IMG/VR virus record: IMGVR_UViG_2579778773_000006 | Source: a virus | Taxonomy: Duplodnaviria > Heunggongvirae > Uroviricota > Caudoviricetes | Reading direction: 5' to 3' (one strand) | Length of the DNA stretch: 7,692 bases | Part shown: one piece after another, positions 965 through 7,692 of the stretch | Layout of the letters: every line of letters starts with the position of its first letter | How positions within the stretch are numbered: position 1 is the stretch's first letter | The notes under the pieces: model-generated | What the model was told of the DNA's origin: nothing | The model's input: the letters and a program-made list of their open reading frames with translations, nothing else | Database searches by the model: none | Program-made: the position numbers and the translations under genes

Positions 965-993
965 AGGCGGGCTGATTGCCCGCCTTTTCTTTA
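965..993 (+). terminator. Rho-independent (intrinsic) terminator downstream of the cargo gene
   Basis: Perfect 8-bp GC-rich stem AGGCGGGC (965-972) / GCCCGCCT (978-985) with 5-nt loop TGATT, followed directly by the T-rich tract TTTTCTTTAT (985-994). Confidence 0.6.
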
Positions 994-1007
994 TCTGTTG
1001 TTTCATC

Positions 1008-1062
1008 CACTGACCAGTCAGGTCAAATAGCGTCTCATGCACTGCCCAACAGACAATAGTTG
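1008..1062 (+). promoter_or_regulatory. Candidate late promoter region (PF-like) for the FI-FII-E-T-U-D operon, containing a dyad-symmetry element
   Basis: Overlapping inverted repeats CTGAC(1010-1014)/GTCAG(1017-1021) and TGACC(1011-1015)/GGTCA(1021-1025) lie about 65-80 nt upstream of the FI ATG, where P2 late promoters carry an activator-binding dyad. No perfect TGT-N12-ACA match and no convincing -10/-35 pair were found, so exact elements are not assigned. Confidence 0.3.
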
Positions 1063-1088
1063 CACCCATTAACCACGGAGTTAAACGG

Positions 1089-2867: not shown

Positions 2868-3143
2868 ATGAACAAAGAAAATGTGATTACCCTGGACAAT
2901 CCGGTCAAGCGTGGTGAGCAGGTCATCGAACAGGTCACGCTGATGAAACCCAATGCCGGGACGCTGCGCGGTGTCAGTCTGGCTGCGGTCGCGAACTCCG
3001 AAGTCGATGCACTGATTAAGGTGCTGCCGCGCATGACGGCACCGATGCTGACCGAGCAGGAAGTTGCCGCGCTGGAACTGCCTGACCTTGTGGCGCTGGC
3101 CGGTAAGGTGGTCGGTTTTTTGTCGCCGAACTCGGTGCAGTGA
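2868..3143 (+). CDS. E: Tail assembly chaperone gpE (zero-frame product)
   Basis: 91-aa ORF (MNKENVITLDNPVKRGEQVIEQVTLMKPNAG...) sits between the tube and tape-measure genes as in P2. Length matches P2 gpE. It contains the slippery run near its 3' end. Confidence 0.9.
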   Translation: MNKENVITLDNPVKRGEQVIEQVTLMKPNAGTLRGVSLAAVANSEVDALIKVLPRMTAPMLTEQEVAALELPDLVALAGKVVGFLSPNSVQ

Positions 3144-3295
3144 CGTTCCCGAAAAATCTCTCGGTCGATGACCTGATGGCGGATGTGGCAGTGATATTTC
3201 ACTGGCCGCCATCAGAACTGTATCCCATGAGCCTGACCGAACTCATCACATGGCGCGAAAAGGCGCTCCGGCGAAGCGGAAACACGAATGAGTAA
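2868..3295 (+). CDS. E+E': Tail assembly chaperone frameshift product gpE+E' (made by -1 frameshift near 3119-3122)
   Basis: Shifting -1 at the TTTTTTG site gives the continuation ...VAELGAVTFPKNLSVDDLMADVAVIFHWPPSELYPMSLTELITWREKALRRSGNTNE, ending at TAA 3293-3295. The predicted fusion is 142 aa, the length known for P2 E+E'. The arrangement parallels the G/GT chaperone frameshift conserved upstream of tape-measure genes. Confidence 0.7.
3114..3122 (+). promoter_or_regulatory. Programmed -1 ribosomal frameshift slippery site (G GTT TTT TG) for E -> E+E'
   Basis: A T6 run (3116-3121) lies within GGT-TTT-TTG in the E frame, 7 codons before the E stop. The -1 frame is open from here to TAA at 3293-3295. 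Confidence 0.7.
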
Positions 3296-5735
3296 CAATG
3301 TAAAATTACAGGTATTGCTCAGGGCTGTTGACCAGGCATCCCGCCCGTTTAAATCCATCCGCACAGCGAGTAAGTCGCTGTCGGGGGATATCCGGGAAAC
3401 ACAAAAATCACTGCGCGAGCTGAACGGTCACGCATCCCGTATTGAGGGATTCCGCAAGACCAGTGCACAGCTCGCCGTGACTGGTCATGCACTTGAAAAG
3501 GCTCGGCAGGAAGCCGAAGCCCTTGCCACACAGTTTAAAAACACCGAACGTCCGACCCGTGCTCAGGCGAAAGTGCTGGAATCCGCAAAGCGTGCGGCGG
3601 AGGACTTACAGGCGAAATATAACCGCCTGACGGATTCCGTTAAACGCCAGCAGCGGGAACTGGCCGCTGTGGGAATTAATACCCGCAATCTTGCACATGA
3701 TGAGCAGGGGCTGAAAAACCGTATCAGTGAAACCACCGCACAGCTTAATCGTCAGCGCGACGCACTGGCGCGTGTCAGTGCGCAACAGGCAAAACTTAAC
3801 GCAGTAAAACAGCGTTATCAGGCCGGAAAGGAACTGGCCGGAAATATGGCCTCAGTGGGCGCTGCCGGTGTGGGGATTGCGGCGGCGGGAACGATGGCCG
3901 GAGTTAAGCTGCTGATGCCCGGTTATGAGTTTGCGCAGAAAAACTCAGAATTGCAGGCCGTGCTAGGAGTGGCAAAAGACTCCGCCGAAATGACCGCACT
4001 CCGCAAGCAGGCGCGCCAGCTCGGCGACAATACCGCCGCCTCAGCGGATGATGCGGCCAGTGCACAGATAATCATCGCGAAAGCGGGTGGGGATGTTGAT
4101 GCCATTCAGGCGGCAACACCGGTCACGCTGAATATGGCGCTGGCGAACCGCCGCACGATGGAAGAAAACGCCGCCCTGCTGATGGGGATGAAATCCGCCT
4201 TTCAGCTTTCAAACGATAAGGTCGCTCATATCGGGGATGTTCTCTCCATGACGATGAACAAAACCGCCGCCGATTTTGACGGCATGAGCGATGCGCTGAC
4301 CTATGCCGCACCTGTGGCAAAAAATGCCGGTGTCAGCATTGAAGAAACCGCCGCAATGGTCGGGGCGCTGCATGATGCAAAAATCACAGGCTCAATGGCG
4401 GGGACGGGAAGCCGTGCCGTGTTAAGCCGCCTGCAGGCACCGACGGGAAAAGCATGGGATGCACTCAAAGAGCTTGGCGTGAAAACCTCAGACAGCAAGG
4501 GAAACACCCGGCCAATATTTACCATTCTGAAAGAAATGCAGGCCAGTTTTGAGAAAAACCGGCTCGGTACTGCCCAGCAGGCTGAATACATGAAAACCAT
4601 TTTCGGGGAGGAGGCCAGCTCAGCCGCCGCTGTGCTGATGACTGCCGCCTCAACCGGAAAGCTGGACAAACTGACCGCTGCGTTTAAAGCCTCAGACGGG
4701 AAGACCGCCGAGCTGGTAAATATCATGCAGGACAACCTCGGCGGTGACTTTAAGGAGTTTCAGTCCGCTTATGAGGCGGTGGGGACTGACCTGTTTGACC
4801 AGCAGGAAGGCGCGCTGCGTAAGCTCACGCAGACGGCCACAAAGTATGTGTTAAAACTCGACGGCTGGATACAGAAAAACAAATCACTGGCGTCAACCAT
4901 TGGCCTCATTGCCGGTGGCGCGCTGGCGCTTACTGGCATCATCGGTGCAATTGGTCTTGTTGCCTGGCCGGTTATCACCGGCATCAATGCCATCATCGCG
5001 GCAGCAGGCGCAATGGGGGCAATCTTCACGACGGTTGGCAGTGCTGTTATGACGGCCATCGGGGCGATTAGCTGGCCGGTTGTGGCCGTGGTGGCCGCCA
5101 TTGTCGCCGGGGCGTTGCTTATCCGTAAATACTGGGAGCCTGTCAGCGCATTCTTTGGCGGTGTGGTTGAAGGGCTGAAAGCGGCATTTGCGCCGGTGGG
5201 GGAACTGTTCACGCCACTGAAGCCGGTGTTTGACTGGCTGGGCGAAAAGTTACAGGCCGCGTGGCAGTGGTTTAAAAACCTGATTGCCCCGGTCAAAGCC
5301 ACCCAGGACACCCTGAACCGTTGCCGTGACACGGGCGTCATGTTCGGGCAGGCACTGGCTGACGCGCTGATGCTGCCGCTTAATGCGTTCAACAAACTGC
5401 GCAGCGGCATTGACTGGGTACTGGAAAAGCTCGGGGTCATCAACAAAGAGTCAGACACACTTGACCAGACCGCCGCCAGAACTCATGCCGCCACATATGG
5501 CACCGGTGGTTATATTCCGGCGACCAGCTCTTATGCAGGCTATCAGGCTTATCAGCCGGTTACGGCACCGGCTGGCCGCTCTTATGTAGACCAGAGTAAA
5601 AACGAATATCACATTAACCTGACGGGTGGTTCTGCGCCGGGAACACAGCTTGACCGCCAGTTACAGGATGCGCTCGAAAAATACGAGCGGGATAAACGTG
5701 CGCGCGCCCGTGCCAGCATGATGCATGACGGTTAA
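3288..5735 (+). CDS. T: Tail tape measure protein (P2 gpT family)
   Basis: 815-aa ORF, equal in length to P2 gpT. The N-terminal region is charged and coiled-coil-like (Q/R/A/L/K-rich). The C-terminal part has Gly/Ala/Ile-rich hydrophobic segments (e.g. LIAGGALALTGIIGAIGLVAWPVITGINAIIAAAGAMGAIF) typical of tape measure proteins. The start overlaps the E' terminus by 8 nt. Confidence 0.93.
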   Translation: MSNNVKLQVLLRAVDQASRPFKSIRTASKSLSGDIRETQKSLRELNGHASRIEGFRKTSAQLAVTGHALEKARQEAEALATQFKNTERPTRAQAKVLESAKRAAEDLQAKYNRLTDSVKRQQRELAAVGINTRNLAHDEQGLKNRISETTAQLNRQRDALARVSAQQAKLNAVKQRYQAGKELAGNMASVGAAGVGIAAAGTMAGVKLLMPGYEFAQKNSELQAVLGVAKDSAEMTALRKQARQLGDNTAASADDAASAQIIIAKAGGDVDAIQAATPVTLNMALANRRTMEENAALLMGMKSAFQLSNDKVAHIGDVLSMTMNKTAADFDGMSDALTYAAPVAKNAGVSIEETAAMVGALHDAKITGSMAGTGSRAVLSRLQAPTGKAWDALKELGVKTSDSKGNTRPIFTILKEMQASFEKNRLGTAQQAEYMKTIFGEEASSAAAVLMTAASTGKLDKLTAAFKASDGKTAELVNIMQDNLGGDFKEFQSAYEAVGTDLFDQQEGALRKLTQTATKYVLKLDGWIQKNKSLASTIGLIAGGALALTGIIGAIGLVAWPVITGINAIIAAAGAMGAIFTTVGSAVMTAIGAISWPVVAVVAAIVAGALLIRKYWEPVSAFFGGVVEGLKAAFAPVGELFTPLKPVFDWLGEKLQAAWQWFKNLIAPVKATQDTLNRCRDTGVMFGQALADALMLPLNAFNKLRSGIDWVLEKLGVINKESDTLDQTAARTHAATYGTGGYIPATSSYAGYQAYQPVTAPAGRSYVDQSKNEYHINLTGGSAPGTQLDRQLQDALEKYERDKRARARASMMHDG

Positions 5736-5749
5736 GGAGGTGACGAAAA

Positions 5750-6229
5750 ATGATGCTCGCGTTAGGTATGTTTGTTTTTATGCGCCAGACGCTGCCACAC
5801 CAGACCATGCAGCGTGAATCAGATTATCGCTGGCCGTCAAATTCCCGTATCGGTAAACGGGATGCCTTTCAGTTTCTCGGTGTTGGCGAGGAAAACATCA
5901 CGCTTGCCGGTGTGCTTTATCCCGAGCTGACCGGCGGAAAGCTGACGATGACCACGCTCAGGCTGATGGCAGAGGAAGGTCGGGCGTGGCCGTTGCTGGA
6001 TGGCACCGGCATGATTTACGGCATGTATGTCATCAGCAGGGTGAGTGAAACAGGGAGTATTTTCTTTGCAGACGGCACACCCCGAAAAATTGATTTTACG
6101 CTGTCGCTCACCCGCGTTGATGAATCACTGGCCGCGCTTTATGGCGATATCGGTAAACAGGCGGAATCGCTCATCGGTAAGGCTGGCAGTATGTCGACCA
6201 GATTCACGGGTATGACGGGGGCGGGATAA
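5750..6229 (+). CDS. U: Tail protein gpU
   Basis: 159-aa ORF (MMLALGMFVFMRQTLPHQTMQRESDYRWP...) at the position and length of P2 gpU. Strong AGGAGGTGA RBS (5734-5742), 7 nt before the ATG. Confidence 0.9.
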   Translation: MMLALGMFVFMRQTLPHQTMQRESDYRWPSNSRIGKRDAFQFLGVGEENITLAGVLYPELTGGKLTMTTLRLMAEEGRAWPLLDGTGMIYGMYVISRVSETGSIFFADGTPRKIDFTLSLTRVDESLAALYGDIGKQAESLIGKAGSMSTRFTGMTGAG

Positions 6230-7392
6230 TGCTGGATGCACTGACATTTGATGCAGGCAGTACGCTGACGCCGGATTACATGCTGATGCTCGACAGCAGG
6301 GATATTACCGGCAATATCAGCGACCGTCTGATGAGCATGACCCTGACGGATAACCGGGGCTTTGAGGCTGACCAGCTTGATATTGAACTGAACGATGCCG
6401 ACGGGCAGGTCGGACTGCCGGTTCGTGGCGCTGTCCTGACGGTGTATATCGGCTGGAAAGGTTTTGCCCTGGTATGCAAAGGGAAATTCACCGTTGATGA
6501 GGTTGAACACAGGGGCGCGCCGGATGTGGTCACTATCCGCGCCCGGAGTGCAGATTTTCGCGGGACGCTCAATTCCCGCCGTGAAGGCTCCTGGCATGAC
6601 ATCACGCTCGGTGCGATTGTTGAGGCGATAGCCTCCCGTAACAGGCTGGAAGCCAGTGTTGCTCCGTCACTGGCCGGAATAAAAATTCCACACATCGACC
6701 AGTCGCAGGAGTCCGATGCGAAATTCCTGACCCGCCTTGCTGAACGCAACGGCGGTGAGGTGTCGGTAAAAATGGGAAAACTGTTGTTTCTCAAGGCGGG
6801 GCAGGGGGTGACGGCCAGCGGTAAAAAAATCCCGCAGATTACCATCACCCGCAGCGATGGCGACCGACATCATTTTGCGATTGCTGACCGTGGAGCCTAC
6901 ACCGGCGTAACGGCAAAGTGGTTACACACCAAAGACCCGAAGCCACAAAAGCAGAAGGTAAAACTGAAACGCAAAAAGAAAGAGAAACACCTGCGCGCAC
7001 TGGAGCACCCGAAAGCGAAACCGGTCACGCAGAAGAAAGCACCAAAAGTACCGGAAGCGCGCGAAGGTGAATACATGGCCGGTGAGGATGACAATGTTTT
7101 TGCCCTGACCACGGTATATGCCACGAAAGCGCAGGCCATGCGCGCCGCTCAGGCGAAGTGGGATAAACTGCAACGGGGCGTTGCGGAGTTCTCCATCAGC
7201 CTGGCTACCGGTCGGGCAGATATTTACACGGAAACACCGGTTAAGGTGTCAGGCTTTAAGCGCGTCATAGACGAGCAGGACTGGACCATCACTAAGGTGA
7301 CACATTTTCTGAATAATAGCGGCTTCACGACGTCCTTAGAGCTTGAGGTCAGGCTTTCTGATGTGGAGTACGAAACAGAAGATGATGAGTGA
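6229..7392 (+). CDS. D: Tail/baseplate protein gpD (late control gene D family)
   Basis: 387-aa ORF, equal in length to P2 gpD. The start ATG overlaps the U stop (TAATG at 6227-6231), suggesting translational coupling. Last structural gene before ogr, as in P2. Confidence 0.9.
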   Translation: MLDALTFDAGSTLTPDYMLMLDSRDITGNISDRLMSMTLTDNRGFEADQLDIELNDADGQVGLPVRGAVLTVYIGWKGFALVCKGKFTVDEVEHRGAPDVVTIRARSADFRGTLNSRREGSWHDITLGAIVEAIASRNRLEASVAPSLAGIKIPHIDQSQESDAKFLTRLAERNGGEVSVKMGKLLFLKAGQGVTASGKKIPQITITRSDGDRHHFAIADRGAYTGVTAKWLHTKDPKPQKQKVKLKRKKKEKHLRALEHPKAKPVTQKKAPKVPEAREGEYMAGEDDNVFALTTVYATKAQAMRAAQAKWDKLQRGVAEFSISLATGRADIYTETPVKVSGFKRVIDEQDWTITKVTHFLNNSGFTTSLELEVRLSDVEYETEDDE

Positions 7393-7473: not shown

Positions 7474-7692
7474 ATGTTTCATTGTCCTTTATGCCAGCAT
7501 GCCGCACATGCGCGTACAAGTCGCTATATCACTGACACGACAAAAGAGCGTTATCACCAGTGTCAGAACGTGAATTGCAGCGCCACGTTCATCACTTATG
7601 AGTCGGTACAGCGATACATCGTGAAGCCGGGAGAGATCCACGCCGTAAGGCCGCACCCGTTGCCATCAGGACAGCAAATTATGTGGATGTAA
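7474..7692 (+). CDS. ogr: Late gene transcriptional activator Ogr (zinc-finger protein)
   Basis: 72-aa product MFHCPLCQHAAHARTSRYITDTTKERYHQCQNVNCSATFITYESVQRYIVKPGE... with C-x2-C ... C-x4-C zinc-binding cysteines, recognisable as P2 Ogr. AGGTG RBS at 7463-7467, 6 nt before ATG 7474. The ORF-track entry starting at 7411 is a 21-codon in-frame upstream extension with no RBS and is not used. Confidence 0.9.
   Translation: MFHCPLCQHAAHARTSRYITDTTKERYHQCQNVNCSATFITYESVQRYIVKPGEIHAVRPHPLPSGQQIMWM

Follow-up and report, generated by a model that had tools for sequence, protein, structure and literature searches.

The tail sheath operon of a P2-like prophage is very probably preceded by a Wphi-type allele of the late promoter pF

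Late activator sites of P2 and 186

The literature consensus for the late activator site of P2-like phages is TGT-N12-ACA. Two papers describe Ogr as binding to inverted repeats whose centre is near −55 and as requiring contact with the RNA polymerase α subunit (PMC3152322, PMC3931495); in P2, late transcription is both Ogr- and α-subunit-dependent in vivo (PMC3152322). The P2 record (AF063097) places the pF activator site, GGTGGTTGTGCTGTCGATTAGCCAACCGG, at 17555–17583 (‘activator binding site; activation of pF promoter’), the start site at 17626–17628 and the FI ATG at 17652. The annotated pF and pO/pP sites both read GTTGT-N12-CCA, a pattern with three matches in the P2 genome, two of them on annotated sites. 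The 186 record (U32222) has B-protein sites at 3798–3817 (GTTGTGTGGGCGGTTGTCCA) and at 14091–14110 (GTTGTGCCAGACATCATCCA), the second serving the sheath promoter pJ. GTTGT-N12-CCA fits both and has no other match in the 186 genome.

Exact TGT-N12-ACA behaves differently. Of its five occurrences in the P2 genome, not one falls within the three activator sites that the record marks. A 6/6 match is therefore not defining, because no annotated P2 site has one.

A P2-like tail region with its own activator gene

The window (the whole stretch of DNA analysed, 7,692 bases) is the tail region of a P2-like (Peduovirus) prophage, its bases 1–1100 being 100% identical to Escherichia coli strain CE0011b (NZ_CP119008.1). 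It opens with an AT-rich cargo open reading frame (1–816, 271 amino acids; the RefSeq start is at window position 37). The plus-strand tail sheath gene FI follows (1089–2279; Pfam Phage_sheath_1, Phage_sheath_1C and Gp18_domIII_N), first gene of the pF-driven operon, and then come FII (2292–2810), E (2868–3143), T (3288–5735), U (5750–6229) and D (6229–7392). This FI-FII-E-T-U-D order is that of the P2 F operon and, as is usual for promoters of the Ogr/B/Delta type, makes the operon downstream a late morphogenetic one.

The same element also encodes a cognate zinc-finger activator of the Ogr/Delta type. The gene, ogr, occupies 7474–7692 on the plus strand (Pfam Ogr_Delta, 1.1e-21, residues 3–49), and its product is identical to P2 Ogr at 71 of 72 residues. 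The sole change, V55I, lies outside the zinc-finger domain. Given this near-identity, nothing in the protein sequence suggests that its DNA specificity has changed. An Rfam scan of the whole window returned nothing in 800–1100, its sole match being a chance-level IRES at 3827–3860.

We find that 996–1065 is very probably the pF late promoter of this prophage in its Wphi allele, overlapped by chance by a palindrome. As such it is a textbook late promoter in a common natural allele and matters little in itself. The initial annotation had proposed an Ogr-dependent late promoter for FI in this stretch, and on comparison with P2 and 186 that proposal appears right, with an activator site other than a perfect TGT-N12-ACA.

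The predicted activator site is of the P2 and 186 form

The predicted Ogr-binding site of pF lies at 997–1016 on the plus strand and reads GTTGT-N12-CCA, an assignment made by homology to the annotated P2 and 186 sites. Its core is formed by TGT (999–1001) and CCA (1014–1016) about a dyad centre at 1007.5. This is the partial dyad typical of Ogr/B/Delta late promoters, TGT-N12-CCA at 999–1016 agreeing with five of the six consensus bases. The pattern has a single match in the 7,692 bases. The P2 pF activator site aligns with window 993–1021, and all eight specified bases agree between 997–1016 and both B-protein sites of 186. Beyond the core, the outer right half carries GT at 1017–1018 against a consensus AC; the 186 pV/p12 site also runs on with GT, giving CCAGT as in the window.

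To place the site among its homologues, we aligned the 135 nt upstream of each FI ATG in 83 regions (80 FI loci from species-representative genomes, plus the window, P2 and Wphi). Conserved blocks fall at 997–1001 (GTTGT), 1014–1018 (CCAAC), 1023–1031 (A(C/T)AAATAGC), 1052–1057 (GA(A/C)AAT) and in a CTCACC start region; at the first four the window reads GTTGT, CCAGT, TCAAATAGC and GACAAT. GTTGT is nearly invariant, with T999 and G1000 present in 83/83 regions. The homologous site is TGT-N12-CCA in 57 of 81 Enterobacterales FI-upstream regions and ends in ACA in about four (L035 and L058 from a heuristic site-finder script; L048 and L049 read by eye in the alignment). Two further loci were also read from the alignment: L006, which has a different, truncated upstream region, and L011, which has GCTGT for GTTGT. 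The suggestion that this promoter uses a divergent activator site thus fails, since TGT-N12-CCA is the form of P2 pF and pO/pP and of most of these regions.

A scoring matrix built from about 78 other FI-upstream regions, with the window and its closest relatives left out, gives only one strong match over the whole window and both strands, at 996–1019 (17.4 bits, against 4.5 bits for the runner-up). The P2 site itself reaches 20.3 bits and the median of homologous sites is 22.0. The window site ranks in the lower fifth, 15 of 82 sites scoring lower, and so is on the weak side yet inside the normal range. Its right half-site CCAGT departs from the consensus CCAAC at two outer positions, G1017 being found in 8/83 regions and T1018 in 5/83, and its strength could be reduced as a result.

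An exact TGT-N12-ACA had been sought by eye in 841–1088 without success. A programmed search bears this out and extends it to the whole window, where 1.6 matches are expected by chance. This absence is uninformative, because the annotated P2 sites also go without an exact match, and normal, because the motif is a consensus that P2 pF itself fails; the missing ‘canonical’ motif is an artefact of taking a loose consensus as an exact pattern. Allowing one mismatch, 841–1088 holds two matches. TGC-N12-ACA at 1038–1055 was rejected as an activator site, since it runs into the −10, with its centre at about −17. For annotation, the lesson is that exact-match scanning with TGT-N12-ACA overlooks real sites even in P2, whereas GTTGT-N12-CCA or the scoring matrix locates the sheath-operon activator site specifically (two of three P2 matches on annotated sites, two of two in 186, a single match in the window).

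Spacing, −10 and start region

The −10 hexamer of pF is GACAAT (1052–1057, plus strand), with A1053 and T1057 invariant in all 83 regions. At the aligned place P2 has GAAAAT and 186 pJ has GACAAT. GACAAT is thus a tolerated variant, shared by 186 pJ and 28 of the 83 aligned regions. Only a weak −35-like element, TAGCGT (1028–1033; two of six consensus bases), lies within and after the conserved box, and no σ70 consensus promoter was found in 700–1200, as expected for an activator-dependent promoter. The locus thereby shows a recognisable −10 with no −35 consensus, the arrangement of Ogr/B/Delta late promoters.

By homology to P2 (17626–17628) and to the 186 pJ initiation point (14159), transcription of the FI-FII-E-T-U-D operon is predicted to start at 1063–1065 on the plus strand. 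The −10 hexamer begins 44.5 nt downstream of the dyad centre, as it does in P2. Measured from the homology-predicted start (1064), the dyad centre lies at −56.5, compared with −57.5 in P2 and −58.5 in 186; with that inferred start, the site is centred at about the 55 bp upstream that is characteristic of these promoters. A ribosome-binding site, GGAG (1077–1080, plus strand), is read from the sequence 8 nt before the FI ATG, and GGAGTTAAACGGATG is kept in almost all of the 83.

Between the activator site and the −35 position lies a plus-strand box of consensus A(C/T)AAATAGC (TCAAATAGC here, 1023–1031). Its columns are well conserved among the 83 regions, which have A at 1023 in 72, T at 1028 in 70, G at 1030 in 81 and C at 1031 in 79. 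The box is without annotation in either the P2 or the 186 record; at P2 pO a similar sequence, GGGACTGATGGC, occurs at the same offset. It may contact RNA polymerase (the α C-terminal domain or σ) or extend the Ogr site.

An inverted repeat, TTATCTGTTG (991–1000) and CAACAGACAA (1047–1056), pairs the left Ogr half-site with the bases just before the −10 (10 nt, 90% complementary, 46 nt apart). CAAC(A/T)G precedes the −10 in many homologues, in columns that are only moderately conserved.

Together these elements suggest a mechanism like that of P2. Ogr, encoded at 7474–7692 of the same element, would bind the partially symmetric 997–1016 about 56 bp upstream of the start. By analogy it would then recruit RNA polymerase through the α subunit to a promoter with a usable −10 (GACAAT) and no real −35, and transcription would start at about 1063–1065 and read FI, FII, E/E′, T, U and D. 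The architecture and the homology to annotated sites are observed; from them, with start site and Ogr binding transferred from the P2 and 186 GenBank annotations, we infer Ogr binding, the start and activation at this locus.

The palindrome at 1010–1025

The 16-mer CTGACCAGTCAGGTCA, which the initial annotation had proposed as a dyad at the expected position of the Ogr site, is present at 1010–1025, 64–79 nt upstream of the FI ATG (1089). It is composed of two overlapping inverted repeats with 5-bp arms, an inner CTGAC-ca-GTCAG (1010–1021) and an outer TGACC-agtca-GGTCA (1011–1025). A comparable overlapping pair arises in about 3% of dinucleotide-preserving shuffles of 841–1088, and 36 of 200 whole-window shuffles contain TGACC-N5-GGTCA with at most one mismatch. 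Its significance is modest, the element being only mildly unusual.

Its position is wrong for Ogr. The palindrome is centred at 1017.5, about −46.5 from the homology-predicted start, where an Ogr site is expected at about −55 to −58; it lies about 10 bp too far downstream. The proposed alignment with P2, 186 and related prophages puts the conserved Ogr site elsewhere, at 997–1016, which is 13 bp upstream and overlaps the first seven bases of the palindrome (1010–1016). Within the palindrome, CCA (1014–1016) alone corresponds to the conserved half-site, 1010–1013 are variable spacer and 1023–1025 are the start of the conserved box. Arm columns 1011–1013 and 1021–1022 are unconserved across the 83 regions. 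The palindrome is absent from P2 (TTAGCCAACCGGGACA at this place) and from 186.

Variation within the allele was followed in 120 copies of the Wphi-type promoter obtained by a pattern scan of IMG/VR. The commonest form of the 16-mer (85/120) reads ...CAGCCAG..., with C at 1018, which is nearer the consensus CCAAC and lacks the inner dyad. The window's form, with T at 1018, accounts for 17 copies, and the inner arms depend on this minority single-base variant. Single changes that break the outer dyad are seen in 10 copies, both-arm changes that preserve pairing (TGGCC...GGCCA) in one, and other changes at 1017–1019 in seven. The outer dyad is therefore intact in 110 of the 120.

These data bear on two ways in which the palindrome might itself be functional. 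In the first, it would be a divergent Ogr operator that has replaced TGT-N12-ACA in this lineage. The dyad is genuine, sits in the upstream part of the promoter and is somewhat rarer than chance, but an Ogr that is 71/72 identical to that of P2, a correctly spaced site of the P2 and 186 form just upstream, the −46.5 centre, the lack of a counterpart in the two phages whose site annotations come from experiments, the missing inner dyad in 85 copies and the unconserved arm columns combine to make this reading highly improbable.

In the second, the outer dyad TGACC-N5-GGTCA would be a second operator, at which a host or phage factor modulates pF from a stretch shared in part with the right half-site for Ogr and the −35-proximal box. 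Such a role would fit the retention of the dyad in 110 copies and the one apparently compensatory double change, as well as the dyad's need for T at 1023, where 72/83 regions have A. A single-stranded DNA fold of the palindrome gives a 5-bp stem of −3.8 kcal/mol with a z-score of −3.1. Against this, the 120 copies are nearly identical overall, so that retention is expected by descent, and single changes do break the dyad in 10 of them. The motif occurs only once in the window, with no second copy of TGACC-N5-GGTCA; it is independent of the cargo, and no known factor is implied. We consider a second operator improbable; the retained pairing leaves a slight chance of selection on the outer dyad, very closely related as the 120 copies are. 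The chance stays slim when the reading is widened to take in a weakened right half-site, CCAGT, that may have been tuned to bind Ogr less tightly in this sub-lineage. If this joint reading were true, the locus would carry either an outer-dyad operator through which a host or phage factor tunes tail-operon expression, or a half-site that lowers Ogr affinity.

The palindrome has neither conservation among homologous promoters nor the correct position relative to the start, as would be looked for in an operator. We read it as an incidental, allele-specific overlap with the Ogr site and not as a separate regulatory element.

The cargo junction is set apart from the promoter

The window starts to match the P2-like backbone (P2, Wphi, P24C9 and many others) at about 869–878, and cargo-only matches end at 888–896. 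The cargo/backbone junction is thus at about 869–896, at least 114 bp upstream of the palindrome. Between the two lies a conserved 91-bp backbone segment (873–963) that aligns with the ‘right inverted repeat’ (1983–2073) of the P2-EC53 Z-region (AJ512682) and contains the hairpin CTGTCAGATTTGACAG (896–911). The segment is the counterpart of the right inverted repeat at the edge of the variable Z/fun cargo region in P2-like phages, and it probably anchors recombination when cargo is exchanged at the G/FI hotspot. The reverse complement of the AJ512682 left repeat aligns only loosely with 873–963.

The repeat is followed by a plus-strand terminator-like element (965–993), a hairpin AGGCGGGC-tgatt-GCCCGCCT (965–985; eight pairs, seven of them G-C) and then the T-run TTTTCTTT. 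The element is conserved in P2 and Wphi and across most of the 83 regions; in the 186 record, a terminator (t45) occupies the equivalent place, directly ahead of the B-protein site. This terminator would shield the late promoter from cargo-side transcription.

The window stays collinear with Wphi, P24C9 and vB_YpM_115 all the way from 869 to the FI ATG, the one interruption being a single-base gap against P24C9 where the junction aligns poorly. The same promoter allele is found beside at least 54 different cargo-side sequences, and the window's variant beside at least nine of them; the palindrome thus has no link to the cargo.

The initial annotation held that the cargo insertion abuts the promoter region, and offered as one possibility that the true Ogr site had been displaced by it. 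The first point does not stand, with the 873–963 repeat and the 965–985 hairpin in between. The second, in which the site would have been displaced or lost on insertion and pF crippled or relocated, drew on the presence of a cargo region upstream of FI in a window without a perfect TGT-N12-ACA. It has next to no chance of being correct: the junction is set apart by repeat and terminator, collinearity to the ATG is kept, the site-to-−10 spacing equals that of P2, the same allele recurs beside all those cargo-side sequences, and the matrix scan for a better-scoring site elsewhere found none. The G/FI cargo hotspot is instead insulated from the late promoter by the conserved repeat and terminator, and through this insulation cargo exchange does not disturb tail gene regulation.

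The cargo itself is sparsely distributed. Its open reading frame has no Pfam match, and PADLOC, run on it and on two upstream cargo genes of the source genome, gave no match either. In the source genome it is preceded by two hypothetical genes and a transglycosylase-domain gene. Only four of 5,426 complete E. coli genomes contain it, and in three of these four it is not beside FI, helix-turn-helix genes coming after it instead. The cargo open reading frame may be an uncharacterised hotspot cargo module.

Natural alleles of pF

Promoter pF occurs in two alleles, P2-type and Wphi-type, which differ at most of the variable positions over about 75 bp (996–1066) between flanks that are more than 90% identical. 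The window and P2 pF (AF063097) share the placement between a terminator-like hairpin and FI, the core TGT-N12-CCA with left half GTTGT, the distance from dyad centre to −10, the conserved box, the ribosome-binding site and the operon, and their activator proteins are 99% identical. P2 nonetheless has the other allele over these 75 bp, with CCAACC as its right half (CCAGT in the window), A as the first base of the box (T in the window) and a GAAAAT −10 (GACAAT in the window); in the window, −10 and start site also stand one base closer together.

Closer relatives carry the window's allele. The isolated Yersinia phage vB_YpM_115 (OR545056) has an identical activator site and an identical 16-mer, and in Wphi (AY135739), also an isolated phage, site and 16-mer differ from the window only by C at 1018. 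Both differ from the window in their GAAAAT −10 and in their upstream cargo (orf44 in Wphi, a NepI-like pump in vB_YpM_115). Position 1054 sets the window apart from IMG/VR copies too: the commonest 25 of the 120 all have GAAAAT and none has GACAAT. In 186 (genus Eganvirus), pJ (site 14091–14110, start 14159) likewise has GTTGT-N12-CCA preceded by a terminator, a GACAAATAGCC box, a GACAAT −10 and a tail sheath gene downstream; unlike the window it depends on B and not Ogr as activator, and its spacer sequence is unrelated.

The exact 141 bp of 960–1100 are present at 100% identity in at least 15 complete E. coli genomes, and 508 records match at 99% or more. Because the segment is so common, the window's promoter allele is almost certainly functional.

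In L006 (Escherichia sp. MOD1-EC7003), whose contig begins 140 nt upstream of FI, unrelated sequence replaces GTTGT and the terminator, while CCAACC and everything downstream are kept; this may be a pF promoter truncated by rearrangement. A few IMG/VR contigs (within loci L089–L208) are recombinant, joining a Wphi-type activator site to a P2-type start region (...GAAAATACCACTCACCC).
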